NCBI GenBank assembly: GCA_964546795.1
Contig: CAZJKG010000002.1
Coordinates: forward strand, 6,307-70,306
Source of the DNA: an uncultured Candidatus Saccharibacteria bacterium
GTDB lineage: Bacteria > Patescibacteriota > Minisyncoccia > Phycocordibacterales > Phycocordibacteraceae
Direction: 5' to 3'
Length of the DNA stretch: 64,000 nt
Below are positions 35-54,454 of this stretch, in pieces. The notes under the pieces were generated by a model. It was not told where the DNA came from. It was given only the letters and a program-made list of their open reading frames with translations, and made no database searches. A program made the position numbers and the translations under genes. Numbering within the stretch: position 1 is the stretch's first letter; every line of letters begins with the position of its first letter.

Positions 35-331
35 ATGGATATAAATGAACTTCTTTGGCATTTTGCTATTCCTTTTTGGGAAGCACAAGATACAGATGAT
101 TATAATTTAACGCCATGGGAATTTATTAAAGATACGCAAAAACATACTGATCATAATCAGAAAATCAAAAAAGCTAATCTCGCGTTTCCGATTGATATTA
201 TGGAAAATAAGGGACGCTGGCTTATTCTTGATGGTTTACACCGCTTAATGAAGGCATATCAACAGGGCCTTCATAAAGTACGTGTCAGAAAAATCCCACG
301 TTCACGTATATCAGAGATAATTAAAAACTAA
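35..331 (+). CDS. Small (98 aa) protein with a possible ParB/sulfiredoxin-fold (ParB-like nuclease) domain
   Basis: ORF lies in the AT-rich first ~330 bp, unlike the GC-rich remainder. The motif 'LILDGLHRL' resembles the DGxHR signature of ParB/Srx-fold domains. No other similarity recognised. Confidence 0.3.
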   Translation: MDINELLWHFAIPFWEAQDTDDYNLTPWEFIKDTQKHTDHNQKIKKANLAFPIDIMENKGRWLILDGLHRLMKAYQQGLHKVRVRKIPRSRISEIIKN

Positions 332-16599: not shown

Positions 16600-18171
16600 T
16601 TATTGCACCTCGAAGCTGAACATCATTCCGGTTTCAAGGTGCTCGGCGATATGGCAGTGTGCCATCCATTCGCCGGGATTGGTGATAACAAGCAGAATAT
16701 CGACATATTGTCCAGCAGGAACGAGTACTGTGTCTTTCCACACAAGATTCGTTTGTGGTACGCCGTTCCGGTCAAGCACTAGAAATTGCTGACCGTGAAA
16801 GTGTACCGGGTGTTGCATCGGGTGGTCCGAATTTGCGTCGTTGCTGATTCTGATTTTCACAGCATCGCTGACCTTAAATTTCCAATGAATGTCCATATTG
16901 GCCTTATCGGTGTCTTCGTCCACAATTTTCCAATCCGTCATTCCCGTATTCGACATCGCATTCATCATCGCCATAGTGTCCTCCCATTCGATGCCGTCAG
17001 GACTAAGCATCATGACATTGCTCATAACGGTGCCATCCGACATTCTGTGACTACCGCCCATGTTGGACATCATGCCACCCATCATGTCGATGGTGAGTGT
17101 GAGACGTTTGTCAATCGGTCTGTCAAAATACTGGCGGTACGGATCAATACTTTCAACTGCTGCGCTATTGGTACGAAGTGTTGCAAATGCTTCGGCGTAG
17201 GACGGTAAAGATTCATCGCCTGACACTGAAATCATTCCGAGCGCGTAGGTCTTGTCGGGGGTCTTATGTTGCATCGTGTATGACCCCTCCCTATCAAATA
17301 AAACTTCTACGACCGCGCGTTCCGAAGGTCCGATGATAACGGCATTTTTCCACTCCTCGCGCTCGCTTGCGCCGCCATCTCCGCCGACAAGTTTCATTTT
17401 AACCCCGGAAATAGCGAAGTTAAACGGCCGGGCATTTGCCGAATTGGTGATGTAAAAGCGGATGACCTCTCCCGTTCTCACAGGAAGTTGATACTCCGGC
17501 TCACCATTGACGAGCATCACGTTGCCGAAGCGGCCCATGAGCGTGCGATCGGCTCCTTTCGTGCTCAGATTGATCTTGCCGTCTTCAATGAGAATGTCAT
17601 CGAAAAAGAGCGCGACCTCGCGATTAACGGGGCTCCAGTACGTAGTATCGGAGGGAACGACAAGATAATTGCCATAGAGGCCGAGTTCCTGCTCGAAATC
17701 CTCACGGACATGTGGGTGATACCAATACACACCAGCGTCTGGGAATTTGAGCTTGTAGGAAAATGTTTCGCCCGGATGCATCTCTTTTTGCGACGTCTGC
17801 GAGCCGTCAAACTGGTTGTCCATGCGAACGCCGTGCGAGTGTAGCAGGGTCGGCATGTCCATATTGTTCTTGAAGTTGATAGTGATCTGTGCTCCCTGCG
17901 GGACTTTAATGAGAGGTCCCGGGATCGATCCATTGTACGCGAGCATCCGATACTCCGTACCGTTAATGTTTTTCGCGACATAGCTTGCAGTGAGGGCATA
18001 GGTGTCGCCGTTCTTCAACTCGACAGTTTCAGACGCTTTTACTTCAGACAACCCGGCAATGTCGGTACTGACGTACGCATTACTTCCACTATACGGCGAT
18101 CTCTGATAGAGAAAGAAACCACTGATAACTACCACTGCAACGAGAAGCACATGTAAGTATTTTTCATTCAT
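16600..18171 (-). CDS. Multicopper oxidase (CueO/laccase-like), secreted
   Basis: Type-1/type-3 copper motifs 'HPMQHPVHFHGQQF' and 'WMAHCHIAEHLETGMMF'. N-terminal TM/signal. A Met-rich segment 'MMGGMMSNMGGSHRM' is typical of CueO-type Cu(I)-binding inserts. Confidence 0.85.
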   Translation of the reverse strand: MNEKYLHVLLVAVVVISGFFLYQRSPYSGSNAYVSTDIAGLSEVKASETVELKNGDTYALTASYVAKNINGTEYRMLAYNGSIPGPLIKVPQGAQITINFKNNMDMPTLLHSHGVRMDNQFDGSQTSQKEMHPGETFSYKLKFPDAGVYWYHPHVREDFEQELGLYGNYLVVPSDTTYWSPVNREVALFFDDILIEDGKINLSTKGADRTLMGRFGNVMLVNGEPEYQLPVRTGEVIRFYITNSANARPFNFAISGVKMKLVGGDGGASEREEWKNAVIIGPSERAVVEVLFDREGSYTMQHKTPDKTYALGMISVSGDESLPSYAEAFATLRTNSAAVESIDPYRQYFDRPIDKRLTLTIDMMGGMMSNMGGSHRMSDGTVMSNVMMLSPDGIEWEDTMAMMNAMSNTGMTDWKIVDEDTDKANMDIHWKFKVSDAVKIRISNDANSDHPMQHPVHFHGQQFLVLDRNGVPQTNLVWKDTVLVPAGQYVDILLVITNPGEWMAHCHIAEHLETGMMFSFEVQ

Positions 18172-18176
18172 AGTAA

Positions 18177-20318
18177 TTATAATATTTTACGGCGAAGCAA
18201 TACGGCATTGATTGCTACGATAACCGTTGAAACGCTCATGAGTATCGCGGCGATTGCCGGCTCTAATACGACACCTTTTGATGCCAGCACGCCAGCCGCA
18301 AGCGGAATGGCGACCACATTGTACCCCGTGGCCCAAAAGAGATTCTGAATCATTTTCGCATACGTAAGCTTTGAAAGTTTGATGATCTTCGGAATATCCC
18401 TCGGGTCGTTTTTTACCAAGATGATTCCCGCCGATTCAATCGCGACATTTGTGCCAGCGCCAATCGCAATGCCGAGGTCAGCTTGCGTCAGAGCGGGAGC
18501 GTCATTGATACCGTCTCCGACCATCGCTACTTTTTTACCTTCGCTTTGGAGCAATCTTACTTTTTCGGCCTTTTGGCCCGGCATGACTTTGGCAAAATAT
18601 TCATCAATACCGAGTTCTCCTGCTACCCACGAAGCAACATCCTCCGAATCACCGGTAATCATCGCTGTCTTGACGCCAAGATTCTTCAGAGTTTGAATCG
18701 CCTCACGCGACTCCTCCCTGATGATGTCCGAAAGAGCGATACTGCCGAGAAGTTTCTTATCCACAATCACGTGAATGACCGTTTTGCCTTCTTTTGACAG
18801 CGTATCTATTTGATTTTGATACTCGCCTGAAATCAGTATGGTATGTTCTGTAAGCAAATCATCATTGCCGACGTACGCCTCTTTATTTTCTACACGTCCT
18901 TTTGCGCCTTTACCGGCAATGCGGAAAAAATCCGTTACCGGCATTAGAACAATGTTCCGCTTCTGGGCCTCCGCGACCATCGCCTTCGCTAGCGAGTGTT
19001 CTGAATGGCTATTGACCGAGGCCGCGATACTGAGAATGGTATCTTGGGAAACGTTGTTGCTCGCGATGATGGCGGCAACGCCGAATTCACCTTTGGTAAG
19101 GGTCCCTGTTTTATCGAACAACACCATATCAATGCTACGCGCCGCTTCAAGCGCACGGCGTTCTTTAACCAGCAATCCGTTCTTCGCTGCCATCGTGGTT
19201 GAAATAGATGCGACCAGAGGAACTGCGAGCCCGAGAGCGTGCGGACAGGTGATGACAAGGACGGCTACGAGCCGCTCGGTCGCAATCACAATACCCGCCC
19301 CGACTAGAACCCACACGCCGAAGGTAATCGTGCCGACCACGAGTGCGATGATGGTGAGATAGAACGCCGCTTGGTCCGAAAGCATCTGGAGACGCGACTT
19401 CGACGCTTCCGCATCGGCAACAAGCCGCATTACGCCTGCAAGAAACGTATGCTCGCCTATCTTTTCTATAGCTACCTTGATGCTTCCATCGCCGTTTGTG
19501 GAGCCAGCAATAACTGACGCGCCTATAGATTTTTCTACCGGACGCGATTCTCCGGTAATGACTGACTCATTTATGTCTGACCTCCCTTCAACGATCTTCC
19601 CATCGGCGGGGATCTTCGCTCCCGGCTTTACTAACACAATATCGCCTGCCCGAAGGTCGCCCAGTGGTATGATCTCGGTCTTATTCCCTCTTATGACTTC
19701 TGCCGTATCGGGCAAAAGTTTCGCCAATTCCCGCAATGCTCCCTGGGCACCTTGCACCGACTTCATCTCTATCCAGTGCCCGAGAAGCATAATGGCGATG
19801 AGCGATGAGAGTTCAAACAATAGATCGTGATGCCCGCCCAGAAGTATTGAAAAGAAACTGTAGAGGTACGCGGCTGTGATGGCGATGGCGATAAGCGTCA
19901 TCATCCCGGGCAATCGGGCTTGGAGTTCGCGATACGCGCTTGCTAGGAAAATCCACCCGCAATAGAAGAAAACGAAGCTTCCGACAATAAGGAAAACGTA
20001 CTGCGACCCGGGGAACTCCGGGGCCTGTATATTAAAGATTATTTTCGCCATTTCCGAATAGAAGAAAATTGGAATGGTCAGCGCAAAAGCAACCCAAAAC
20101 TTCCTCAGGAAAGATTCGGTTTGATGGCCCGCGTGCTTACCTGCCCCGCTGTCATGCGAAGCATGTACTTTGGGGTCGTGCGCTTCGTGCTCGTCGGCTT
20201 TCTTTGCGTCGGTCGGGATGAGATTCATTCCACACTCCGGACAGATGCCGGGCGTATCCCGTACAATCTCCGGATGCATCGGACAAGTATATAAATGTGT
20301 ATCGTGGGAATTTTTCAT
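18177..20318 (-). CDS. copA: Copper-translocating P1B-type ATPase (CopA-like)
   Basis: N-terminal Cys-rich metal-binding motif 'CPMHPE...CPECGM', TM motif 'CPH' ('ITCPHALGLAVP'), phosphorylation site 'DKTGTLT', and 'GDGINDAPAL'. Confidence 0.9.
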   Translation of the reverse strand: MKNSHDTHLYTCPMHPEIVRDTPGICPECGMNLIPTDAKKADEHEAHDPKVHASHDSGAGKHAGHQTESFLRKFWVAFALTIPIFFYSEMAKIIFNIQAPEFPGSQYVFLIVGSFVFFYCGWIFLASAYRELQARLPGMMTLIAIAITAAYLYSFFSILLGGHHDLLFELSSLIAIMLLGHWIEMKSVQGAQGALRELAKLLPDTAEVIRGNKTEIIPLGDLRAGDIVLVKPGAKIPADGKIVEGRSDINESVITGESRPVEKSIGASVIAGSTNGDGSIKVAIEKIGEHTFLAGVMRLVADAEASKSRLQMLSDQAAFYLTIIALVVGTITFGVWVLVGAGIVIATERLVAVLVITCPHALGLAVPLVASISTTMAAKNGLLVKERRALEAARSIDMVLFDKTGTLTKGEFGVAAIIASNNVSQDTILSIAASVNSHSEHSLAKAMVAEAQKRNIVLMPVTDFFRIAGKGAKGRVENKEAYVGNDDLLTEHTILISGEYQNQIDTLSKEGKTVIHVIVDKKLLGSIALSDIIREESREAIQTLKNLGVKTAMITGDSEDVASWVAGELGIDEYFAKVMPGQKAEKVRLLQSEGKKVAMVGDGINDAPALTQADLGIAIGAGTNVAIESAGIILVKNDPRDIPKIIKLSKLTYAKMIQNLFWATGYNVVAIPLAAGVLASKGVVLEPAIAAILMSVSTVIVAINAVLLRRKIL

Positions 20319-20339: not shown

Positions 20340-21017
20340 TTATTCGAAGCGCAACTCAATTTTGTCCTTATCGTGCATGACGTAGTTCTCGTACTCAATG
20401 TTTTCCTCCCCATTTACGGTCATCGTTATATTTTTGCCAAATGATTGCATATCCCTGCCCCAATTCGTGAAAAATTGACCAAGAGTAATATCCTGTTTGC
20501 GAACGAGACCTTGAAACTCAAGATGGATAATAGGTAGATCATCATGCGTATGCATCGGCATGTGGACCGCACCGATGCCAATATTTTGCGGAATCTCCTG
20601 CTTTTCACCTTTTACGTAAATGGTAAGTTCCGGATGCCAGTGAAAACCTGATCGGGAGACAATATCTGATTCCGGAATTGGAGGCCTTGTGGCGACATAC
20701 CAGATAAGACCTCCAATCATCGCAATGGTCAGACCGCCGCCCAAAATCCATGAGACAATTTTCTGAAAATTACGTTTCTGCATAGCCGCTTCTTTTGCCT
20801 CCATCTTCACCTGCTGTTTTAGCGCTTTGCGCTCAGTTTTGGTGGGCATCGATTCATTTGTTAATGTGACTGCATGTTTTATTATATCTAAATTACAACT
20901 TTTATGCTCTTTGCACCACGCTTGGCATTTTTCAGCGAATTCTTTGTTCTCATACAGAAGATGGCATTCTTCGCACTGATAGTATTGTTTATTATTATGT
21001 GAAATTATTTTTGTCAT
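20340..21017 (-). CDS. Membrane-anchored protein with an N-terminal zinc-ribbon and a His/Met-rich extracytoplasmic domain, possibly copper-binding
   Basis: N-terminus 'QCEECHLLYENKEFAEKCQAWCKEH' has four Cys. One TM helix follows. The C-terminal domain carries 'HWHPE' and 'AVHMPMHTHDD', which resemble Cu-binding Met/His motifs. It sits directly upstream of copA in the same operon. Confidence 0.45.
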   Translation of the reverse strand: MTKIISHNNKQYYQCEECHLLYENKEFAEKCQAWCKEHKSCNLDIIKHAVTLTNESMPTKTERKALKQQVKMEAKEAAMQKRNFQKIVSWILGGGLTIAMIGGLIWYVATRPPIPESDIVSRSGFHWHPELTIYVKGEKQEIPQNIGIGAVHMPMHTHDDLPIIHLEFQGLVRKQDITLGQFFTNWGRDMQSFGKNITMTVNGEENIEYENYVMHDKDKIELRFE

Positions 21018-21036
21018 GGTTATTTTTGATTAATCA

Positions 21037-21579
21037 TTAAATCTTACAGATCGCTGGATTTTGGATTTGTTTTGCCATCATAGAGAGAGATATCGCAAGT
21101 AGTATCACACCAAGAATACCGAATTCGCCGCCGTTAAGTGGCAGAAATGTCAGTATCCAAGATGCGCCGAAGATCGAAAAAATGCTTGTGAGGAGAAGTG
21201 ACCCGCATGCGGCGCATCCCATACCGACCATACCGCTCGTTATCCCAAAAAATCCAGTAGTAATTCCGCTCTGCTTCACATCAGTGATCCTACGACGCAA
21301 GAAGTAGACAATCATGGCGAGATTGATGCCAAACAAAACAGCAATAGTAATCGTATACGAGGCAGAGAGTGGGGTGAAGTTTGTTGTAATAGAACCGAGC
21401 AAGCTAATCGGCAGACCAAGCTTCTGTGAAAAAGATACTCCCGAATGTCCCATGACTTCCACAATCAATGAAATGTTTGGGAGCCATACGGCAAAAGCAA
21501 AGACGATTGCACTCGTCGCAAGAGCAATGAGTACATACGAGGGTTTTTGAAATACTTTTTGCAGAGCGTGAACGATCAT
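21037..21579 (-). CDS. Polytopic membrane protein with an intramembrane or loop CXXC motif ('GCAACGS')
   Basis: 180 aa, about five TM helices. The stop of the upstream DsbA gene (21582) is 3 bp away. Could be a DsbB/VKOR-like redox partner, but lacks their canonical signatures. Confidence 0.4.
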   Translation of the reverse strand: MIVHALQKVFQKPSYVLIALATSAIVFAFAVWLPNISLIVEVMGHSGVSFSQKLGLPISLLGSITTNFTPLSASYTITIAVLFGINLAMIVYFLRRRITDVKQSGITTGFFGITSGMVGMGCAACGSLLLTSIFSIFGASWILTFLPLNGGEFGILGVILLAISLSMMAKQIQNPAICKI

Positions 21580-23266: not shown

Positions 23267-24349
23267 TTATTTTTTGCGCGAAACATCAGCGTAGATTGAG
23301 AGGAGAACAAAAAGCAAACTCAACGACAAGGGGCCAAGGAAGATGCCGCTCGGGCCGAAGAACATTATTCCCCCGAGAACTGAAAGGAGGACGAGAAGCG
23401 AATGGAGTTGCATTCTTTCCCCGACAAGCTTCGGCCCGAGAATATTGTCCACAAGTCCGACTGCAAGAGCACCCCACGCAAGGAGTCCAAATGCTTGCGG
23501 TATGTTCCCAATGAAAAAAAGAAATGTGATAGCGGGGATGAACACAAGCGCCGTCCCGATCCCGGGAATAAGGGCTGCGATCGCGGCAATCGTTCCCCAG
23601 AGAAAACCGTTCGGGATTCCAAAAAGCATGAAGCCGATCCCCGTCAACACTCCCTGTATGAACGCAATGGTGAGATTCCCTTTGACGATAGAGTCAATCG
23701 CGGTCTCAAGCCGTTCAAAGACCCCTTCGTCTTCTTTGTCGTTCAAAGGCGAGAGCTCAATAAGCGTCTGTCGTACACGCTTCCCATCGCGCAAAAGATA
23801 GTAGAGCGCGATGAAGAAAATAAAGAATGAAAGAATGAGCGAAGAGATGCTCGAGAAAATCCCTCCGATATGCTGTGTAATCCACTGCAAACCTTCTTTC
23901 GTATATGTATCTATATTCGCCGAGACGCCGCGGGTGAATTCCCCGAGTCCGGGAATACTTCCGCCGAAGTTTTCATCGGCCCGTAGAACCAGCTTCGCGA
24001 TAGCGCTTCGCCCGCTTCCTTCCCCAAGGGAGAGATAGAGATTGTGTGCCTCGTTCCCGACAAATACCCCGATAAGCGAGAGCGGAAGAAGTATGAGGAA
24101 CACGCTAACAACGACCGTTAGAAATGCGGCAACGCTTGGCCAACCGCCGAGCATATTTGAAATTCTTCCATACAATCCCTGCAATATGACGGCGAATACT
24201 GCGGCAAGCGCGAGCGGCTTGAGGAATGGCGCGAATATCAACGCCACAAGGATGATTGCTCCGACAAGAAGAACCACAAGAAAATACGGTCTAAGTTTCT
24301 CGCTTTGCATAAGGGAAGTATAGCAAAACGCTTTTGTCTTTCGGAGCAA
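23267..24349 (-). CDS. AI-2E family transporter (PerM/UPF0118)
   Basis: 360 aa, about eight TM helices. Typical AI-2E layout with N-terminal helices 'LVVLLVGAIILVALIFAPFLKPLALAAVFAVIL' and a C-terminal 'GP' motif region. Confidence 0.8.
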   Translation of the reverse strand: MLRKTKAFCYTSLMQSEKLRPYFLVVLLVGAIILVALIFAPFLKPLALAAVFAVILQGLYGRISNMLGGWPSVAAFLTVVVSVFLILLPLSLIGVFVGNEAHNLYLSLGEGSGRSAIAKLVLRADENFGGSIPGLGEFTRGVSANIDTYTKEGLQWITQHIGGIFSSISSLILSFFIFFIALYYLLRDGKRVRQTLIELSPLNDKEDEGVFERLETAIDSIVKGNLTIAFIQGVLTGIGFMLFGIPNGFLWGTIAAIAALIPGIGTALVFIPAITFLFFIGNIPQAFGLLAWGALAVGLVDNILGPKLVGERMQLHSLLVLLSVLGGIMFFGPSGIFLGPLSLSLLFVLLSIYADVSRKK

Positions 24350-26209: not shown

Positions 26210-26243
26210 AGGTGTTGATAGCTATATCTCTCAACCTTTATTT

Positions 26244-26453
26244 CTAACTACGTATGTAAGCGATTAGGAGAAACACCAGTAATGAAATAATGCAGAGAAT
26301 GGCGAGAGCGACAACATAGACAAGCGCGATAGCCGGCATGGCGATGATGCCGCCCACGCCCGCAGAGGACAGATGGTAGAAAACGTAGGCCACAATGCCA
26401 ACGGAACCAAGAATGAAACCGGCAAGATGATAGAGAAAAATAGTATGCTTTTT
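26244..26453 (-). CDS. Small two-TM membrane protein (hypothetical)
   Basis: The track ORF 26244–26564 overlaps the upstream gene by 77 nt. The internal Met 'MKKHTIFLYHLAGFILG...' at ~26453 removes the overlap. Low-GC island region. Confidence 0.35.
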   Translation of the reverse strand, partial: KKHTIFLYHLAGFILGSVGIVAYVFYHLSSAGVGGIIAMPAIALVYVVALAILCIISLLVFLLIAYIRS

Positions 26454-26487
26454 CATTTTAGAAATCTCTTCGTCAGAGGAATTGAAA

Positions 26488-27120
26488 TTATATCTTTCGT
26501 ATTCGTTTCCCACTGGCGTTCGTAAAGTAATCGCTTTTCTTCCCATGGTTAACTTTTCCGCCATGAGTATCAGCGGTGCGATGAAAAAACTCGTTTCCAG
26601 CGGTTAGTGAATTTAGATTCCCTTTGATACGTTTCTGATGGCGACCTGTTGTTAAGTGAGTTGTTGGTTGATATCCAAATTCCGCATACATGTCATAAGC
26701 AATTTCCCGTGAATCCAAACCAATCCGTTGTTGTTCTTCCAGAATACGTGCCTTTCTTTTTGACAACTGCTCTGTCTTCTTTTGAATTGGGGGTGCAATA
26801 GATTTTAATGCCGACTCATTGATTGTTCCCTCTTCGATCTGTTGCAACGCTTGTTGAACCTGATCTTCAAATTTGATAATTTCTTGCAGCTTTCCCTCTA
26901 TGCGCCAAAATTCAGCTTCCTTTTCATTCAGCACGTCACGTTCGTGCAGATTCAGTGAGCGAGATTTCATCTCAGATGTCTGTTGATATACGTCTTGTTG
27001 ATGCTCTTTTAATTGAGTTCTCAGCTCCGATAATTCTTCTGCTCTTTGCCAGAGCAATGGTTCATAGGTTGTTTTTAGTGATTCCAGGTTTTTCTTCTGT
27101 TGTGAGCTTTCTATCGACAT
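26488..27120 (-). CDS. Coiled-coil hypothetical protein (210 aa) in the low-GC island
   Basis: Q/E/K-rich heptad-like sequence, AT-rich codon usage, and an upstream RBS 'GGAGGAGG'. Preceded by copy R1 of the duplicated element. Confidence 0.45.
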   Translation of the reverse strand: MSIESSQQKKNLESLKTTYEPLLWQRAEELSELRTQLKEHQQDVYQQTSEMKSRSLNLHERDVLNEKEAEFWRIEGKLQEIIKFEDQVQQALQQIEEGTINESALKSIAPPIQKKTEQLSKRKARILEEQQRIGLDSREIAYDMYAEFGYQPTTHLTTGRHQKRIKGNLNSLTAGNEFFHRTADTHGGKVNHGKKSDYFTNASGKRIRKI

Positions 27121-27181
27121 TGGTCAATTATACCAAACAAGTTCAATCCTCCTCCACTGGCTGACCTCATCGGATTCATGC

Positions 27182-27248
27182 ATTATACCGTTAAGCCCCC
27201 ATTGAGTTTTCTGGCGGCTTTTTTGAACTCAAATCGACGCACTTCGGA
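27182..27248 (-). promoter_or_regulatory. Island promoter/operator element, copy R1 (contains a perfect -10 TATAAT on the minus strand)
   Basis: About 85% identical over its first 33 bp to copy R2 at 28211–28267, followed by a second conserved block after a short diverged stretch ('attataccgtYaagcYccMattgagttttctRg ... aaatcgac...tcgga'). It sits upstream of the coiled-coil gene. Confidence 0.45.
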
Positions 27249-27288
27249 ATGGGGTCGAAATTAGACAAACTAGACACTTTTAACCATT

Positions 27289-28203
27289 TTAATAATCCTT
27301 CCAAAGTTTGTCCTGATAAGGATCTACAATTTTCCCCTTACTATTCCGGACTTCAAAATGGAGATGCGGTCCGACACCCCCATAACCCCCTGAGTAAGCA
27401 ATGATCTGTCCTTCTTTCACGGCGACCGATTTAGTGTAGTCAGTAAGTTGAGCTTCAATTTCATCTACCAATTTTGTGCAGTGCAAGAGCCAGGAAACAT
27501 AGCTATTGGCGTGTTTGATATAGAAAGAGTGCCATCCTTCCCAAGCAGTAGGATTATTGAGCCCAAGATTCTTTAGTGCCCACGTTCTGTTAACTCCATC
27601 AATCGGATCAGTTTGTGCTTTAAATAAGTCCCCGTCTGCAGGGGCTATAAGTTGCGTTCCTGGAATGCACTTAAAGTCATAACCCGCATGGCCATCATAA
27701 TTTAGATAAAACGTTGGCCCATATTTGTCTCCTGCACCTGGTGCACCTACATAATTAATTTCCCCGGCAGAGAAAAATGGAGATGGAACTTTCTTTGCAT
27801 ACCCTAAAGCACTCGTTCCGGCACAAGGATCCCCGTCTCCGACTTCTCCATTAAAAGATCGTGTCTTTTGATCTTTCGCATTCAAGCCCCACGGCTTATT
27901 GCTACTTGGATCAATCGCTGTGCCCATATGGTCAATCACGGCAGTGATTTTTGCGGTACGGGACGTAACGGGCCTTCCATTTGCGTCATTGAGTTTGACT
28001 GGACAAATGAGGAATCCGGTGCTCGTTGGTACGACTGGAGCGGGAGCCGGTTCTGGCGCTGGCGGCACAATCACTGGAGGTGGTACAGGTTGCGGAGTCG
28101 GAGGTAGATTAATCGGGGCCGGTACAGGTTGAACCTTTGATTTAGAAAGGTTCGTAAGGAAAGTCTTAAGTACCTCTCCCAAGATTTTGAGAAACGACTG
28201 CAT
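27289..28203 (-). CDS. M23 family metallopeptidase (LytM-like peptidoglycan endopeptidase) with a Pro-rich N-terminal linker
   Basis: C-terminal 'GPHLHFEVRNSKGKIVDPY' is the M23 HxH zinc-site signature. Pro-rich 'PVPAPINLPPTPQPVPPPVIVPPAPEPAPAPVVP'. The track ORF starts at TTG 28230; the first ATG is at ~28203. The TATAAT of R2 is only ~7 nt upstream, so the transcript may be leaderless. Confidence 0.8.
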   Translation of the reverse strand: MQSFLKILGEVLKTFLTNLSKSKVQPVPAPINLPPTPQPVPPPVIVPPAPEPAPAPVVPTSTGFLICPVKLNDANGRPVTSRTAKITAVIDHMGTAIDPSSNKPWGLNAKDQKTRSFNGEVGDGDPCAGTSALGYAKKVPSPFFSAGEINYVGAPGAGDKYGPTFYLNYDGHAGYDFKCIPGTQLIAPADGDLFKAQTDPIDGVNRTWALKNLGLNNPTAWEGWHSFYIKHANSYVSWLLHCTKLVDEIEAQLTDYTKSVAVKEGQIIAYSGGYGGVGPHLHFEVRNSKGKIVDPYQDKLWKDY

Positions 28204-28210
28204 ATCTACT

Positions 28211-28267
28211 ATTATACCGTCAAGCTCCAATTGAGTTTTCTAGAACCTTAAATCGACCCTCCTCGGA
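28211..28267 (-). promoter_or_regulatory. Island promoter/operator element, copy R2
   Basis: Duplicate of R1. The minus strand reads ...AAAACTCAATTGGAGCTTGACGGTATAAT immediately 5' of the M23 peptidase ATG. Confidence 0.45.
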
Positions 28268-28309
28268 TAGTTTGTTGACTCGCAATTACCCGTTAGTACT
28301 ACAATGATC

Positions 28310-29227
28310 TTAGATCATAATCTTTTCTGAACGAATGAGATGATCCATCTTCTGATAAGCATGGATAGCAGTTGTGTGGTCTTTCTTTTTCATCACCTTA
28401 GCTATTTGTGGGAAAGATAATTTCGCATTTCTCCTTAAGAAATATATGGCGAGATGTCTAGGAAAAACAAGATTCGCCATTCTTCTGCTTCCCAATAAAT
28501 CGTCGATTGGTATAGCGTATGCCTTACTTATACTTGCAATGATATCTTTAACTTCTACCAGTTCGGACGGATCGATTGGTATTGGTTTTTTAGGGGGTGC
28601 CGGAACTGCCCCATTGAGTTTGAGTATTGTTGTATTTAGAATTTGTCTTATTCGCTCCCGCGTGATGCCAAATTTCCCTGCAATTACTTCATAAGTCTTG
28701 CCTTCGAGTCTTAGTCTCATTATTTCATTTTCTCTTTCATTCATTCTGATGTTGCCCGTAGCACGAGCTGGAGCTGAATTGTAAATAAAAGCTGGATTCC
28801 CTTTCTCTAGCACACCAAAGAAGTCATCGATGATAGAAAATTCTGTAAAAGCTGTAATTTTCTGTCCATCGTCATAAACAATTTTCATTTCATTATCAAA
28901 ATCATTTGATGAGATTTGCTTCAACAAATCGTGTAGAACTTCATTTCTTTTGTTGCGATAACGGTCAAATAGTCCTCTCTTTTCTTTGGGTAACCACTCG
29001 CTATCAAATAATAATTTAATTAATTCGGAAAGATTGTACTGAACGATTCTCTTTCTCAAAGCAGCTAAAATAGCTGGGTCTGCATCTCTTATCGATAGCG
29101 ACAATTTAGTTTCGACAAACAATTTTATTAGACTTTCTATGTAGGCACTTTGTAATACAAAAGCTTCGAGAAGAAGGTTCTTCTGTCCATAGTTTTCTAT
29201 TCTTTCTTTTAGGTCATCTTTCCTCAT
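28310..29227 (-). CDS. DNA-binding regulator fusing sigma-70 region 4 (HTH) to a DnaA C-terminal (domain IV) DNA-binding domain
   Basis: 'ERENEIMRLRLEGKTYEVIAGKFGITRERIRQI' matches sigma-70 region 4. 'VKDIIASISKAYAIPIDDLLGSRRMANLVFPRHLAIYFLRRNAKLSFPQIAKVMKKKDHTTAIHAYQKM' matches DnaA domain IV, including the DHTT(V/A)(I/L)HA signature. There is no AAA+ domain. About 38% GC. Confidence 0.7.
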   Translation of the reverse strand: MRKDDLKERIENYGQKNLLLEAFVLQSAYIESLIKLFVETKLSLSIRDADPAILAALRKRIVQYNLSELIKLLFDSEWLPKEKRGLFDRYRNKRNEVLHDLLKQISSNDFDNEMKIVYDDGQKITAFTEFSIIDDFFGVLEKGNPAFIYNSAPARATGNIRMNERENEIMRLRLEGKTYEVIAGKFGITRERIRQILNTTILKLNGAVPAPPKKPIPIDPSELVEVKDIIASISKAYAIPIDDLLGSRRMANLVFPRHLAIYFLRRNAKLSFPQIAKVMKKKDHTTAIHAYQKMDHLIRSEKIMI

Positions 29228-29232
29228 TTTTG

Positions 29233-29303
29233 CTGCCCGACAGGGATTCGGACCCCAATTAACGGCTTCAAAGGCCGCTGTCCTACCATTAGACGATCGG
29301 GCA
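29233..29303 (-). tRNA. tRNA-Gln (anticodon TTG), with an atypical T-arm
   Basis: Minus strand: TGCCCGA-TC-GTCT-AATGGTA-GGAC-A-GCGGC-CTTTGAA-GCCGT-TAAT-TGGGG-TCCGAAT-CCCTG-TCGGGCA-G. Perfect 7-bp acceptor stem. The T-loop reads TCCGAAT, with C where the near-invariant U55 is expected. The T-stem needs two G·U pairs. It lies immediately 5' of the low-GC island. Confidence 0.55.
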
Positions 29304-29352: not shown

Positions 29353-30504
29353 TCATTTGTCAGGACCTTCGGGGAAGAGTTCCAAAACGGCGAGTTCGAG
29401 AGGAAGCGCGGGAATGGGTGCGTAGCGGATGCGCTCGGCGGCGGTCAGGAAGGCAAGCATGGTCGCATGGGTAATGCCCCTAGACGGCTCGTTCCACGAG
29501 CCGCCGGGCGACCCAGCTTCGCTGGGTTTAGCCTTCCCTTTTCCTGCACTGAGCGACTTGTCCTGAGTTTTATCGAAGGAAGTCGAAGTGGCGAATTTTT
29601 CAAGCGCGGAGAATTCGTCCGCGCCGAGCTCGTCCGCGAGCGAGGTGCGAAGTTCTGGTGCATAACGAATGAGGAGCGTGGCGCGGAGGGCCTCCAACAC
29701 AAGTTCCAGAAACAACTTCATGTCGGCACCGGATTTCGCCGCCTGCTCAATGGCGGTAAGTGCCTTGCCGCGTCCGCCAGCTGGCGGAGCTGCGGCGAGT
29801 GCGCTCACGAGCGCATGCACTTGTTCGCGCCGCGGTGCGCCAGTCGCCGCCTCCACCGTCTCGCGCGACAATGTCTTCCCTTTCGTAGCGGCAAATACCT
29901 TTTGCAACACCGAAAGCGCATCGCGATACGAGCCCTCGGCGAGTATCGCGATAAGCTCAGCGGAGTCCGGTGCGAGCGTATACCCTTCTTTCTTTGCGAC
30001 CGCCACGGTCATCTTCGCGAGCACCACTCGCGTCGGCTTTTTGAATTCAAACACTTGGCAACGCGACTGCACCGTCTCCGGTACTTTCTCAAGCTCGGTG
30101 GTCGCGAGAATAAAAACCGCATACGCAGGCGGCTCTTCAAGCGTCTTCAGAAATGCATTCCACGCGCCCTTGGAAAGCATGTGTACCTCGTCCAGAATGT
30201 AGACCTTATAGGGTGACTGAAACGGCAATGTGTAGACACCCTCGGTGAGGGCGCGAATGTCTTCTACGCTGTTGTTGCTCGCGGCATCCACCTCGTAGAG
30301 GTCATTCTCGGTGCAGCCAATAGCGCTTGCGAAGATGCGCGCGACCGAGGTCTTCCCGAGACCACGGCTGCCGGCAAATAGATACGCATGACCTATCTTC
30401 TTTGACTTTGCCGCTTCTTCAAGCGGTTTTGTCACCTGCTCCTGCCCAATGACCTCCGCAAAAGTGGCCGGCCGGTGAATACGATAAAGGGACTGATGCG
30501 CCAT
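29353..30504 (-). CDS. dnaX: DNA polymerase III subunit gamma/tau
   Basis: 'YRIHRPATFAEVIGQEQVTKPL...AYLFAGSRGLGKTSVARIFA' is the clamp-loader AAA+ N-terminus. 383 aa. Confidence 0.9.
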   Translation of the reverse strand: MAHQSLYRIHRPATFAEVIGQEQVTKPLEEAAKSKKIGHAYLFAGSRGLGKTSVARIFASAIGCTENDLYEVDAASNNSVEDIRALTEGVYTLPFQSPYKVYILDEVHMLSKGAWNAFLKTLEEPPAYAVFILATTELEKVPETVQSRCQVFEFKKPTRVVLAKMTVAVAKKEGYTLAPDSAELIAILAEGSYRDALSVLQKVFAATKGKTLSRETVEAATGAPRREQVHALVSALAAAPPAGGRGKALTAIEQAAKSGADMKLFLELVLEALRATLLIRYAPELRTSLADELGADEFSALEKFATSTSFDKTQDKSLSAGKGKAKPSEAGSPGGSWNEPSRGITHATMLAFLTAAERIRYAPIPALPLELAVLELFPEGPDK

Positions 30505-30656: not shown

Positions 30657-31211
30657 ATGGAACGATTTCGGTGGCATGCCGTTCTGTGGAGCGGCATTCT
30701 GGGCTTTCTCGTCCCGACGTATTTCGGTTACACGCTCTACGTCGACAGGATACCCCAGAACATCGCCACATGGGGTATGGTGTTGGCGCTTGATGCACTC
30801 GGCTTGTTGTTGGTCATCAAGGACGGAAACAAGAAACCCTATATGCAGGTTGGATGGGTGTTCGCTGCGCTATGTATCTTCGTCGGCGCGTTCTTCAGCG
30901 AAAACATCTCGGCATGGGGATACACAGAAGCAATTTCAGTTGTTATGTGCATTTTCGCAGTTGTGCTGTGGCAAACGCTCGGTCCGAAGTACGGATTGAT
31001 TGCCTACGTCGCGGCAATGTGGATTTCGTTCGTCCCTCTCGCTATGGATTATCTGAAGGAGCCCCAGCCAAGCACTGTATGGTTATGGCAACTGACGATT
31101 GTGTCGTGTCTGCTCGCAATCGTTGGGGCAGAAAAGCGGGACTTCACGAACACCTTCATCCCATGGGGCTGCATCGGGCTCAATGCGGCGATGTGGTACG
31201 TCTGCTTGTAA
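30657..31211 (+). CDS. Polytopic membrane protein, hypothetical (184 aa)
   Basis: Five or six TM helices, strong RBS. No recognisable family. Confidence 0.5.
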   Translation: MERFRWHAVLWSGILGFLVPTYFGYTLYVDRIPQNIATWGMVLALDALGLLLVIKDGNKKPYMQVGWVFAALCIFVGAFFSENISAWGYTEAISVVMCIFAVVLWQTLGPKYGLIAYVAAMWISFVPLAMDYLKEPQPSTVWLWQLTIVSCLLAIVGAEKRDFTNTFIPWGCIGLNAAMWYVCL

Positions 31212-49699: not shown

Positions 49700-52384
49700 T
49701 TATACTAGGGGCGAAGCTGCAGCGGGATTCCGCGAGCGGCGAGACGTCGCTCGCTTCACCTCGAAATGCGGCTCGTCATTCTTGATGGAGACCGTCACCA
49801 TGCCTCCCTCCATGAGTCCCTGATCAACCATGAGGGATGCGAGTGGTGTGAGTATCTTGTCCTGAATAGTGCGGCGCAAGGGGCGCGCGCCATACTGCGG
49901 ATTGTAGCCCTTCTCCGCAAGCCATTCGCGCACTCCCGGCAAGAAAGAAAGCGAGATGCGCTTCTGCGTAAGCCGCTTCATGACCTCTTCCACCTGCGTG
50001 TCCACGATCTTGGCAAGCGCCTCCTTCGCGAGTACGTCGAAGATAATGATGTCATCAAGTCGATTGAGAAACTCCGGGCGGAAGTGCTCTTTGAGCGCAT
50101 CCATAACCTTCACCTTCGTTTCCTCATATCGGGTCGCGTCAGTTGCGCCCGCACTGCCGAAACCGATGTGCGCAAGCCGGTCGATGAATTCCCCACCGAT
50201 GTTGGACGTGAGTACGATAATCGTATTTTTGAAATTGACTTTGCGCCCCTTGCCGTCGGTCAAATGTCCCGAATCAAGCACTTGAAGCAGGATATTAAAC
50301 ACTTCCGGATGCGCCTTCTCAATCTCGTCAAAGAGCACTACAGCGTATGGGCGATGTCGGATACGTTCGGTCAATGAACCGGACTCTTCGTAGCCGACGT
50401 AGCCGGGCGGCGCGCCGATAAGCTTAGCGACCGAGTGTTTCTCCATGAATTCGCTCATATCAACACGCACGAGAGCGTCAATATCGTTGAACATGAATTC
50501 TGCTATTTTCCTTGAGAGCTCGGTTTTACCGACGCCGGTGGGACCAAGGAAGAGGAAGGAGCCGATGGGACGATTGGGGTCGCTAATGCCGACGCGCGAA
50601 CGCTTTACGGCATCAGTGACTTTCTTTACCGCGATATCCTGACCGATGATGTCGCTCTTCAATGTTGCTTCCATACGGGTAAGCTTTGCGGCCTCTTCCT
50701 CAAGCATCCGTGAGACCGGGATGCCGGTCCAACGCGAAACGACACCGGCGATATCTTGTTCGGCCACTTCTTCATTGAGGACGCGACGCGATTTCTGCAA
50801 TGTCTTCAGACGCTTCAGTTTCGTCTCCAAATCTTTCTGGATATGCGGGATGCGGCCGTAGCGAATTTCCGCGACCGTGCCGAGATCGGCGGCAATTTCC
50901 GCATTATCCGCCTGTACTTTGAGCGCCTCGAGTTCGGTCTTGGCAGCGCGGATGCCGCTCAAAATATCTTTTTCATTCTTCCACTTGAGCTCAAGTTCGC
51001 TGGTCTTTTCCTTCAAATCCGCGACCTCCGCATCAATGACCTTAATGCGTTCTTTTATCTCCTTGGTATGTTCTCCTTCCAGATCCTTCTGGAGCGCCTG
51101 CCGTTCTATCTCAAGGCGGCGAATCTTGCGATCGGTCTCTTCCAAGAGAGGTGGTTTGTTCTCGAGCGCAATGCGAAGTCCCGATGCCGCTTCGTCTATG
51201 AGATCAATGGCCTTATCCGGCAGGAAACGGTCGGTGATGTAGCGGGACGAGAGCTCGACGGCGGCGACAATGGCGCCATCAGTAATGCGCACGCCATGAA
51301 AGAGTTCGTACTTGTCGCGCAAGCCGCGAAGAATGGCGATACCGTCTTCCACCGACGGCTCTTGCACGAATACCGATTGGAAACGGCGTGTGAGTGCGGC
51401 ATCCTTCTCAATATATTTCTGATATTCCTTCAGCGTCGTCGCGCCGATCACACGTAGCTCACCGCGGGAGAGGGCCGGCTTCAACATATTCGATGCATCC
51501 AAAGAGCCCTCGGCGCCTCCGGCGCCGACAAGTGTGTGCAGTTCATCCACAAAGAGAATCACCTTGCCTTCGGCACGTTCTACTTCCTTCATAACGTTCT
51601 TCATCCGCTCCTCAAACTCGCCGCGATACTTGGTACCGGCGATAAGAAGCCCGAGATCAAGCGAGAGAAGCTCCTTGCTTTTGAGCGATTCGGGGACGTC
51701 GTTAGCCGCCATGCGCGCGGCGAGTCCTTCTGCGATCGCCGTCTTCCCCACGCCCGCTTCGCCAATGAGGACCGGGTTATTCTTCGTACGGCGTGCGAGA
51801 ATCTGGATGACCCGATTGATCTCCTGATCGCGGCCGATGACCGGATCGAGTTTATTCTCGGCGGCGAGTTTGGTGAGATTACGCGCATATTTCGCGAGCG
51901 CACGGAAACGTTTTGGTTCTACGGTCTGTCCTTCCTTAGAACTCTTGAGTTCTTTGAGAATAGCGATTGCCGCGTCACGACCTATGGAGAAGCGTGTGAA
52001 AATATCCGCAGCGCTCCCTGGATGTTCGATAATGGCAAGGAAGAGATGCTCGGTGCCGACGAATGTGTCATTCATCCTTGCAGCTATCTTTCCGGATGCT
52101 TCAAGCGCCTGCGCGAGGTCGGGTGTGAGATAGATCTGATATGAAGGCGAGAGGACTGAGGCGTTTTCGGGTGTCTCAAGGTGCTCAAGCACGGCATCCG
52201 CGAGCATGTTGGTATCCACTTCCATTCTGTCGAGCATGGAGAACACAAGCGATTCTTCCTGGAGTACGAGGGCGGCGAGCAGGTGGAGCGGCGAGACATG
52301 ATTTTGTCCGCGCTCTATCGCTATCTCATGCGCGCGACGTACGGCTTCTTTGGCTTTGGTGGTGAAATTATTGAAAGGCGGCAT
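49700..52384 (-). CDS. clpB: ATP-dependent chaperone ClpB
   Basis: 894 aa. Clp_N repeats, two AAA+ modules ('[10 protein letters not shown]' and '[10 protein letters not shown]'), a middle coiled-coil domain, and a sensor 'GARPLRR'. Confidence 0.9.
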
Positions 52385-53302: not shown

Positions 53303-54454
53303 CTACCTTCGGCCGTCACTGTCAATAAACGCGACCGCCTTCGTAAGCGCTCTTGCAAAACGAGTGAAAGCGCGTGTAGGAACACCGGGACCCCAGGACA
53401 TACGCAGTGTTGCACAGGCGCGTTCCGGATCGCTAGTCAGGATCAGGACAGCTCGTGAACCCACTTCGGAATCCGTCTCGCAGGCGCTCCGTGACGAGAC
53501 GGCGAAGCCCGCTTCATCAAGGAGCGCGACGAGATAATCGGTATCATGGCCCGGAAGTGAAAGATTGAGAATATGAGGTGCCTGAAAGTGGCCCTCCTGC
53601 ACTTGTACATTCGGAATACCGGCAGTGATCATGTTGATGAGGTTCGCGCGGTCGCGCTCGGCGGAAGCACGGAAGTTCTCGCGCTCAAGCACGGCGGCGG
53701 CGACCGCCGCCGCGAAACTCCGCGCAAGTTCCGGTGCCTCGCTCCCTGAACGCAATCCGCGTTCCTGTCCGCCGCCCGCATAGAGAGGAACCATCGGAAT
53801 CGTGCGATGTGCGATGAGCGCGCCGGTGCCGCGAACAATGGAGACCTTGGAAGCATCGAGTGTGAGCATGTCCGCAGCAAAATGTGCGCGTGTTATTTTC
53901 TCGGTCAGGGGCGCCTGGCTCGCGTCAACATGCAACAGAATGTGCGAGTTGAACGCGAGCTGTGCTTCGTCCAGAACACGGCGAACCTCGCGGGTATTCC
54001 ACACGACTCCCGTTTCGCCGCAGACCGCCTCCATGGAGATGAGGGCTGTCTCAGGCGTGAGCATTTTCTTGAGCGCCTCAATATCAATTCGATAATCCTT
54101 GACCGGAAGAGTGTCTACCCTTACGCCTTCTGCGGAAAGCATCTTTGCGTTCTCAACGATTGATGCATGTGCGCTCGGCAGATACAAGATATGAATGTCT
54201 TTTCTCTCCGCCGCATCGCCTGCCTGCTGGTAGGCAGGAAGCGCTCGCACATGTCCCAGAATAGCGAGAGCGTTGCTCTCAGTCGCTCCGCTTGTGAAAA
54301 TGACATCGTCCGGCTGCACCTCGACGAGACGAGCAATGATTACCCGCGCGTCTTCCAGCATTTTCTTAGCGCGCCTCCCCTCTTCGTGGGGCGACGACGG
54401 GTTAGGCGTCACGCCTGCAGCATTATCAAGATATATTCTCCGCTTCCAAAACAT
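53303..54454 (-). CDS. Cysteine desulfurase / class V aminotransferase (IscS/NifS-like)
   Basis: 'IYLDNAAGVTP', a PLP-binding Lys region 'SAHASIVENAKML' (ASxHK-like), and a C-terminal 'SSRSACETD' region. Confidence 0.85.
   Translation of the reverse strand: MFWKRRIYLDNAAGVTPNPSSPHEEGRRAKKMLEDARVIIARLVEVQPDDVIFTSGATESNALAILGHVRALPAYQQAGDAAERKDIHILYLPSAHASIVENAKMLSAEGVRVDTLPVKDYRIDIEALKKMLTPETALISMEAVCGETGVVWNTREVRRVLDEAQLAFNSHILLHVDASQAPLTEKITRAHFAADMLTLDASKVSIVRGTGALIAHRTIPMVPLYAGGGQERGLRSGSEAPELARSFAAAVAAAVLERENFRASAERDRANLINMITAGIPNVQVQEGHFQAPHILNLSLPGHDTDYLVALLDEAGFAVSSRSACETDSEVGSRAVLILTSDPERACATLRMSWGPGVPTRAFTRFARALTKAVAFIDSDGRR

Follow-up and report, generated by a model that had tools for sequence, protein, structure and literature searches.

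Genomic islands have been documented in the Patescibacteria, or Candidate Phyla Radiation (CPR), from metagenome-assembled genomes of aquifers, together with lateral transfer that runs mostly within the phylum (PMC12455944). Those islands were predicted by composition alone in small streamlined genomes, and restriction-modification genes are frequent among their cargo; neither tRNA genes nor integrases are mentioned in the main text of that study, and a gene set like the one described here is not reported there. In this study we analyze a low-GC block of about 2.8 kb that directly follows the tRNA-Gln gene in a stretch of 64,000 nucleotides from an uncultured CPR bacterium (assembly GCA_964546795.1, contig CAZJKG010000002.1, positions 6,307 to 70,306; below, the window). 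The block encodes a three-domain protein (REG), an M23-family metallopeptidase (M23), a coiled-coil protein (CC) and a small hydrophobic protein (TM1), which are listed with the flanking features in Table 1. Like the aquifer islands, it is a segment of atypical composition in a CPR genome, and restriction-type genes are found downstream of the same tRNA gene in two related loci (L012 and L006). Since islands and within-phylum transfer are documented in this phylum, the island is of an already known kind. Its nearest counterparts are the serine-recombinase islands flanking tRNA-Gln in related genomes (L021, L001, and L031), which share with it the slot, a low-GC cargo of a few kilobases, and patchy presence. 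The block differs from them in having neither a recombinase nor a duplicate of the tRNA end, whereas L021 has both a 56-nt duplicate and a recombinase within 6.5 kb.

An earlier sequence-only reading of the window had placed an island of about 3 kb, with low GC, immediately after tRNA-Gln, and this was borne out by segmentation, by a GC scan, by tetranucleotide content, and by codon usage. Maximum-likelihood segmentation of the 22-32 kb region delimits the low-GC segment as 26424-29231, with a GC content of 0.410 compared to flanking values of 0.500 (left) and 0.548 (right); the mean over the 64 kb is 51.2%. The flanking GC content of 55-60% claimed in the same reading thus holds for the dnaX side, but not for the left flank with its 50%. 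Among all 3-kb segments the block is the lowest (GC 0.416 versus a mean of 0.511 with a standard deviation of 0.025, the next lowest being 0.467). Its tetranucleotide distance to the remainder of the window is 0.426, more than 10 standard deviations above the background (0.192 +/- 0.022, maximum 0.251). The GC content at third codon positions (GC3) equals 0.32 in REG, 0.39 in M23, and 0.37 in CC, compared to 0.56-0.65 in the flanking genes (0.65 in dnaX, 0.56 in the AI-2E permease gene). Composition, codon use, and oligonucleotide content all deviate, the block is the strongest compositional outlier of the 64 kb, and in the broad sense of a segment with atypical composition it is a genomic island.

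The right compositional change-point (29231) is one or two bases from the discriminator base of the tRNA (29233), and REG, the first open reading frame (ORF) of the island, begins 5 nt past that base; hence the compositional edge coincides with the tRNA 3' end. The tRNA is genuine, being called by both ARAGORN and Rfam and conserved in relatives. At the other end, the change-point (approximately 26424) falls inside the 5' end of the small ORF TM1. All genes between 23.3 and 30.5 kb are on the minus strand, which agrees with the claim that the genes of the block read in the direction of the tRNA. The gene content proposed earlier was largely retained: Sigma70_r4, Bac_DnaA_C, and Peptidase_M23 domains are recognized by Pfam, a helical hairpin is modeled by AlphaFold2 (AF2), and two small hydrophobic ORFs are present. 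One of the latter, TM2, lies outside the low-GC block because its GC content is host-like.

A scan of species-representative genomes with DnaX yielded 590 relatives, with Patescibacteria labelled Paceibacterota, Kaiserbacteria, or Minisyncoccia. The best matches are 81%, 80%, and 78% identical, one of them residing in a closed 993-kb chromosome. Judged by these sequences, the host is a Paceibacteria/Kaiserbacteria-like CPR bacterium. For the comparison of gene order, 80 related loci with the conserved dnaX-tRNA-Gln flank (DnaX identity at most 81%) were considered, and 10 kb downstream were examined in each. Relatives retain the order serS, ftsQ-like, dus, dnaX, tRNA-Gln. On the other side, the AI-2E gene adjoins this tRNA in several of the more distant relatives: in L019, a TGCTATAAT promoter comes 7 nt after tRNA-Gln and precedes the AI-2E ATG, and the layout of L020 and L025 resembles this. 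The two genes are 4.9 kb apart in the window, where the compositionally foreign part is confined to the 2.8 kb next to the tRNA. None of the 80 loci has, in the 10 kb examined downstream, a homolog of REG, M23, CC, TM1, TM2, or the neighboring Cys-rich protein. The syntenic comparison suggested by the sequence-only reading thus finds the block absent from 80 of 80 loci with both flanks conserved.

The slot 3' of tRNA-Gln is a clade-wide integration hot spot. In the closest relative (L001, DnaX 81% identical), a 549-aa large serine recombinase with Resolvase, Recombinase, and Zn_ribbon_recom domains (L001:11510-13159, minus strand) overlaps the last 31 nt of tRNA-Gln (L001:11469-11540); no duplicate of the tRNA end is found within the 21 kb of sequence. 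L021 contains a 56-nt direct repeat (82% identity, with a 30-nt core at 93%) at positions 11640-11695 and 15191-15246, 3.55 kb apart, comprising the last 24 nt of tRNA-Gln and 32 nt of the flank. The repeats enclose about 3.5 kb of low-GC cargo, a TrmB regulator and an NMT1/ABC transporter, and a 443-aa large serine recombinase is encoded beyond them at 16843-18174, still within 6.5 kb, so that the locus resembles a tandem stack of two islands. In L031, a recombinase 58% identical to that of L021 is situated 1.9 kb downstream of the tRNA. Other fillings of the slot are a ResIII helicase in L006 and two ORFs of approximately 310 and 350 aa in L002, which by eye resemble insertion sequence transposases, and low-GC DNA lies directly downstream of the tRNA in L007, L014, and L021. 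The proposal that insertions land at the tRNA 3' end therefore holds for the clade, given the serine recombinases of L001, L021, and L031 and the tRNA-end duplicate in L021.

With moderate confidence, we regard the block as a laterally acquired, now immobile accessory islet of about 2.8 kb, carrying REG, M23, CC, and a small membrane protein in the slot 3' of tRNA-Gln(UUG). Under this scenario, a slot that repeatedly takes up foreign, often low-GC DNA in the clade would have received the block by lateral transfer from another Patescibacteria genome with lower GC content. The route that we prefer, and hold weakly, would be entry of a large-serine-recombinase element with subsequent loss of the recombinase; alternatively, the resident DNA may have been replaced by homologous recombination through the conserved flanks. 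The block would now have no means of moving itself, and its genes appear to use the leaderless-type promoters of the host lineage. The peptidase gene argues for import. Its homolog in L101 has a host-like GC content (0.484 versus 0.465), which makes the low GC3 of the window copy look imported, and the closest homologs reside in genomes of 0.42-0.47 GC, which fits a donor of this kind. All three families, REG, M23, and CC, are essentially restricted to Patescibacteria. Among the features of tRNA-targeting elements, the boundary at the tRNA end and the patchy presence between conserved flanks are observed, and a recombinase, attachment (att) sites, and hallmark genes are missing.

Several observations weigh against the acquisition of the block and, in part, against the recombinase route. 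Integrase, resolvase, and transposase domains were not detected by Pfam in any gene between 16.4 and 30.5 kb, and a tblastn search of the window with the recombinases of L001 and L021 gave a best E-value of 0.1, leaving no sign of a recombinase remnant. The absence of an integrase noted earlier was thereby confirmed. The idea that one might lie beyond the far end of the island failed, as the next 10 kb encode the Cys-rich repeat protein and the AI-2E permease, a BtpA-like ORF and DsbA, two small ORFs of low GC content, and two copper proteins, namely a Cu P-type ATPase and a multicopper oxidase. An att duplication, proposed earlier as a check at the distal boundary, is likewise missing: a blastn-short search of the whole window with the tRNA and 30 nt on either side returned no second copy of the tRNA end longer than 11 nt, which is the chance level, and the same kind of search recovers the 56-nt repeat of L021. 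Among 20 listed of at least 60 families of direct and inverted repeats over 20-31 kb, none touches the tRNA. Serine integrases need only short att sites and need not leave long direct repeats. Given that neither an integrase, nor an att-type repeat, nor a recombinase remnant is seen, the entry route is a proposal rather than a demonstrated event. Further, the closest relatives are only 75-81% identical in DnaX, so the gain cannot be dated, and gene-by-gene loss in the relatives could have occurred instead of gain. REG is below the host GC content in six of seven loci, by 6-18 GC points, with the same pattern in GC3: 0.363 versus 0.516 in the window, 0.37 versus 0.553 in L081, 0.386 versus 0.567 in L107, 0.289 versus 0.402 in L085, 0.247 versus 0.31 in L087, and 0.45 versus 0.515 in L089, which has the N-terminal domain only. 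The exception is L083, close to its host with 0.47 versus 0.491 (GC3 0.55 versus 0.58). As REG is AT-rich in nearly every host, its low GC content alone is no proof of recent transfer and may reflect the gene itself instead of its having arrived recently. In L081/82 and L107/108, REG stands alone between rpsI and grpE. Finally, the neighbors of REG homologs (L081-L087, L107/108) and of M23 homologs (L101-L106) include no other island gene, and hence REG, M23, and CC do not form a demonstrated functional unit.

The persistent AT-richness of REG, which extends to GC3 and is seen whatever the host GC content, would be accounted for if the block were an old resident locus of vertically inherited, lineage-specific genes, kept AT-rich, for instance, by selection for low expression or for DNA properties. 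In the two divergent genomes with the rpsI-REG-grpE order (L081 and L107), REG is 48% identical, that is, about as diverged as RpsI (55%) and GrpE (50%), and both the host-type promoters of the island genes and the absence of mobility machinery are consistent with long residence. We nevertheless consider it rather unlikely, because the block is missing from every related locus while both flanks are retained, the slot is an insertion site in relatives, M23 is host-like in GC content in L101 and thus not intrinsically AT-rich, and the REG gene of L083 demonstrates that AT-richness is not obligatory. The lack of att sites and of an integrase would also follow if DNA from a related CPR cell had recombined via the dnaX/tRNA-Gln and AI-2E flanks without any site-specific recombinase. 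The clade as a whole retains these flanks, each of the three families is limited to CPR bacteria, and transfers among Patescibacteria predominate (PMC12455944); but no donor carrying the block between the same flanks occurs among the 80 loci, and the left boundary lies 2 kb from the AI-2E gene, inside a small ORF and not at the conserved flank, which makes such a replacement unlikely.

Acquisition of an islet that is now immobile also has to be weighed against an element that still moves. The sequence-only reading had considered a phage, a satellite, or an integrative element. This identification was not sustained, as integrase, att duplicate, hallmark genes, viral relatives of M23 and CC, and a common gene order are all missing. 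Capsid, terminase, portal, replication, relaxase, and excisionase genes are absent from the block, and matches to PHROGs are at the domain level only (sigma/HTH, M23). Neither M23 nor CC has relatives in 2.9 million viral contigs, in which REG has one distant partial match, and other loci with the same families show no common gene order. In our reading, the block is neither a prophage nor a satellite. A non-autonomous satellite or mobilisable island, whose movement would depend on a recombinase acting in trans and supplied by another part of the genome or by a helper phage, would agree with the right edge lying exactly at the tRNA end, with serine recombinases that act at the same site in relatives and whose short att sites leave no long repeats, and with the resemblance of the C-terminal half of REG to small proteins common in tailed phages. 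However, direct or inverted terminal repeats were not found, capsid, packaging, replication, and excision genes are lacking, the viral contigs and PHROGs offer nothing beyond the matches above, and no two loci share a gene set as copies of one element would; continued mobility thus seems quite improbable. Very improbable, in our opinion, is a chimera of metagenome assembly, with a fragment from a genome of lower GC content attached to the conserved tRNA sequence. Chimeric joins classically form at tRNA genes, a second CPR genome whose M23 is 62% identical (L103) comes from the same sample, and a contig from an independent assembly (L100, run SRR8863434), which is 100% identical over 27117-29261, ends inside the tRNA and at 27117. 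But the same contig independently confirms the joining of 30 nt of the tRNA to REG, two joins would be needed, no repeat marks the left boundary, and the left side returns to DNA syntenic with relatives. The synteny of both flanks and the identity with L100 thus make a chimera unlikely.

On our favored reading, lateral acquisition with later immobility, the locus is a clean and checkable case of accessory-gene gain in ultra-small CPR genomes, where one slot holds different cargo in different lineages. Some of its fillings keep the serine recombinase and the att repeat, and the block in the window lost or never had them. The locus also provides a warning for island calling, since low GC content alone can mislead when a family such as REG is AT-rich in nearly every host. 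The island itself is ordinary, and no general concept is changed; the unusual part is the REG family, with its architecture and persistent AT-richness, and the CC family is also notable. Both are uncharacterised and CPR-specific, and may bear on envelope remodelling, defence, or the episymbiotic lifestyle.

Table 1. Features of the low-GC block and its flanks (positions in the window)
Feature	Positions	Strand	Evidence and remarks
dnaX (DNA polymerase III gamma/tau)	29353-30504	-	Pfam; synteny; right conserved flank
tRNA-Gln (anticodon UUG)	29232-29303	-	ARAGORN; Rfam RF00005, 57.5 bits versus gathering score 29; alignment with 8 relatives; right island edge
REG, 305 aa	28310-29227	-	Pfam Sigma70_r4 and Bac_DnaA_C; HEPN-like N-terminal domain
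31-nt promoter-like repeat, copy 1, AGAAAACTCAATTGGAGCTTGACGGTATAAT	28211-28241	-	repeat search and pattern search; TATAAT ends 7 nt before M23 ATG, leaderless-type
M23 (LytM-type) metallopeptidase, 304 aa	27289-28203	-	Pfam PF01551, 41.7 bits versus cutoff 28.7; HAGYD, HLH; Pro-rich linker
31-nt promoter-like repeat, copy 2	27182-27212	-	repeat search and pattern search; upstream of CC gene
Extended -10 element TGGTATAAT	27127-27135	-	sequence reading; 6 nt before CC ATG, leaderless-type
CC, 210 aa	26488-27120	-	AF2 helical hairpin (antiparallel coiled coil), pLDDT (predicted local distance difference test) 77; CPR-only family; 38 homologs
TM1, 70 aa	26244-26456	-	ORF list and hydropathy; almost wholly hydrophobic
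TM2, 88 aa	25943-26209	-	ORF list and hydropathy; one hydrophobic helix; GC 0.48
Cys-rich secreted protein, 525 aa	24364-25941	-	six 144-nt (48-aa) repeats (repeat search); Q/Y/E-rich low-complexity C-terminus
AI-2E family permease	23267-24310	-	Pfam; synteny; left conserved flank, beside tRNA-Gln in L019, L020, L025

REG consists of a HEPN-like domain (approximately residues 1-145), a sigma-70 region 4 helix-turn-helix (HTH; 162-204), and DnaA domain IV (227-293), and is modeled by AF2 with pLDDT 83 and a predicted TM-score (pTM) of 0.71. A search of 5.8 billion clusters yielded only 13 full-length relatives, and both source-named ones are labelled Minisyncoccia. Look-ups of the exact REG and dnaX sequences returned no record. 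The N-terminal domain has the all-alpha HEPN fold. The triplet K93-R94-N95 is invariant and 11 of 13 members carry H99, which yields an R-N-x3-H spacing that, at the sequence level, would fit Rx4-6H. Curated HEPN models of Pfam, NCBIfam, and PADLOC do not reach threshold; the best is DUF4145, which we take to be a member of the HEPN clan, with E-values of 0.016-0.21 in 3 of 13 members, and a profile search against PDB sequences yielded chance matches only (calmodulin). For lack of a curated model at threshold, the domain is named HEPN-like. Domain IV shows both the DNA-binding fold and the DnaA-box contact signature. REG is not a DnaA protein, as AAA+ and DnaA_N do not match and TIGR00362, which aligns with the domain IV region only, reaches 73.6 bits where the cutoff is 343.9. 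Nor is it a sigma factor, since only region 4 matches, region 2 is absent, and the sigma equivalog models are far below cutoff. REG is predicted to be a regulator or an RNase-type effector.

Among known systems, HEPN-domain proteins joined to DNA-binding domains in toxin and abortive-infection systems, such as the C-terminal HEPN domain of AbiA (PDB 8oz7), HEPN/MNT pairs (PDB 5yep and 7ae2), and Csm6/Csx1, differ from REG, which has no antitoxin partner, CARF domain, or polymerase domain, stays below the curated-model threshold even for its best match (DUF4145, E=0.016), and has H99 replaced in 2 of 13 members. In the literature searched, no fusion of HEPN to sigma region 4 and DnaA domain IV came to light, nor anything relevant on HEPN combined with DnaA or sigma region 4, or on mobile elements carrying DnaA domain IV. 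The DnaA C-terminal proteins of tailed phages (BFVD A0A6J5LT00 and A0A6J5MPW1; the 180-aa protein of L088) have in common with REG the domain IV fold and the invariant R...PR...DHTT DNA-contact signature, and some also have an additional upstream HTH; but they have no HEPN-like N-terminal domain, the identity is 18-33%, and the REG-family genes reside in cellular CPR contigs. Many small HTH and DnaA-C proteins of phages are present in BFVD. The L088 protein (IMG/VR, L088:9971-10513) is encoded among early genes that, judged by eye, resemble a RecT-type recombinase, a methylase, and HNH and VRR-NUC nucleases.

Members of the REG family are found 5 nt past tRNA-Gln in the window, 229 nt past tRNA-Lys in L085, and 20 nt past an rpsI-terminator-like hairpin, an inverted repeat with a T run, in L081. 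Their AT-richness can be read either as repeated insertion at preferred sites or as something that holds the gene AT-rich; the identities do not group by location, which favors neither reading. One speculative and rather improbable interpretation is that REG represents a Patescibacteria-restricted class of single-gene selfish or defence modules, in which a HEPN-type RNase is combined with a phage-like double HTH (sigma region 4 and DnaA domain IV). Such modules would land next to where strongly transcribed structured-RNA or ribosomal genes end, be persistently AT-rich, and bind DnaA-box-like DNA or the AAACTCAATGGGG motif, coupling RNA cleavage to the control of replication or transcription. 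A stand-alone homolog of the N-terminal domain (174 aa, 33% identical) is encoded in L089:10001-10525 between polA and fpg, with recF-dnaN-dnaA some 4 kb away; REG of L085 likewise has fpg close by. In L081, ARAGORN calls an unusually long tRNA-Gly(UCC) of 87 nt (L081:11387-11473, minus strand), convergent with the REG homolog, 445 nt downstream of it, and in the same low-GC patch.

M23 contains the metal ligands of peptidase family M23, HxxxD (as HAGYD) and HxH (as HLH), and its start codon agrees with the 304-aa gene call of the source assembly (P0030). The catalytic domain with both motifs is shared with the LytM/M23 endopeptidases of the MepM, ShyA, and NlpD type. Only this domain matches, however, with scores well under the equivalog cutoffs; LysM and coiled-coil segments are absent from the chain, and the N-terminal half, which includes the Pro-rich linker, is confined to a CPR family of about 60 clusters. 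The approximately 60 full-length homologs, all from CPR bacteria and 42-67% identical, occur in varied accessory contexts; for instance, that of L101 lies beside KAP NTPase, ResIII, and methylase genes. In L104 (7667-15000), a 64%-identical homolog is located 2.3 kb downstream of tRNA-Gln(CUG), amid small membrane and hypothetical genes that form a 7-kb stretch of low GC content, a layout that parallels that of the window with different neighbors.

Among the 38 homologs of CC, some of which are 85-90% identical, those with a source name are Patescibacteria. The invariant C-terminal motifs LTTGRH...TADTHGGKV.HGK...SGKRIRK form the most conserved part of the protein and are modeled with low confidence by AF2. 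CC has no significant match in PDB, Pfam, PHROG, or PADLOC, and a fold search returned generic coiled coils only, none at E<=0.001. PADLOC recognized none of the block genes, apart from a match of CC to LmuB (E=0.039), which is explained by the coiled coil. TM1 probably forms two membrane helices. We infer that REG, as a HEPN-like double-HTH protein, would stand beside a cell-envelope module composed of the M23 endopeptidase, its CC partner, and a membrane protein.

As for expression, no own promoter is evident for REG, and a conserved TGnTAnnGT element resembling a -10 box is found just upstream of tRNA-Gln in the alignment with 8 relatives. The simplest reading of these two facts is that REG is probably co-transcribed with tRNA-Gln, from which it would be freed by processing of the tRNA 3' end. 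The starts of M23 (TATAAT-N7-ATG) and CC (TGGTATAAT-N6-ATG) both follow the pattern of the host, in which TGnTAnnnT, then 6-7 nt, and then the start codon is a common arrangement at genes of the window, others being preceded by GGAGG. The AI-2E gene, for instance, has a TGCTATACT-N6-ATG promoter in the window and the same layout in L019. Leaderless-type starts are seen, for example, at 24310, 27120, 28203, 35088, 49700-52384, and 53303-54454, alongside genes with GGAGG ribosome-binding sites.

The 31-nt promoter-like element, which ends in TATAAT, occurs in two copies at 90% identity, compared to none expected in the pattern search; it was not found in other loci except L100, a contig of the same organism. 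Duplication of this element suggests that M23 and CC are probably co-regulated. Its core motif AAACTCAATGGGG, with at most two mismatches, has five matches in the window versus 1.5 expected. Four of them are in the island on the coding strand (28609-28621, 28226-28238, 27984-27996, and 27197-27209, all minus), of which REG and M23 each contain one, and the motif may be a candidate operator. DnaA boxes (TTATCCACA, at most one mismatch) number 13 in the window versus 9.8 expected, with none in the island.

Left of the block, synteny is retained at the AI-2E gene, at the Cu-ATPase gene as in L024, and at the gene 15291-16352 as in L002 and L006. In the latter two loci, synteny with the window resumes only at this gene, and thus about 13 kb (16.4-29.2 kb) differ from the closest relatives. 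The Cys-rich protein belongs to a family with 1633 representative clusters at E<=0.001 and no Pfam model; having a host-like GC content, its gene is not part of the low-GC block. Within the region that differs from the closest relatives, the multicopper oxidase and the Cu P-type ATPase (16600-20318 and 20340-21579, both minus), followed by two ORFs of low GC content (0.41-0.45), may constitute a second accessory patch, for copper handling. On the other side, a 184-aa membrane ORF at 30657-31211, on the plus strand between dus and dnaX, has no homolog in the 80 related loci and appears to be a second small insertion within an otherwise conserved block. Finally, a 98-aa ORF with a GC content of 0.34 at the left end of the window (35-331, plus strand) has a 57%-identical homolog in the variable region downstream of tRNA-Gln in L006 (15012-15299), and may be a small mobile gene.

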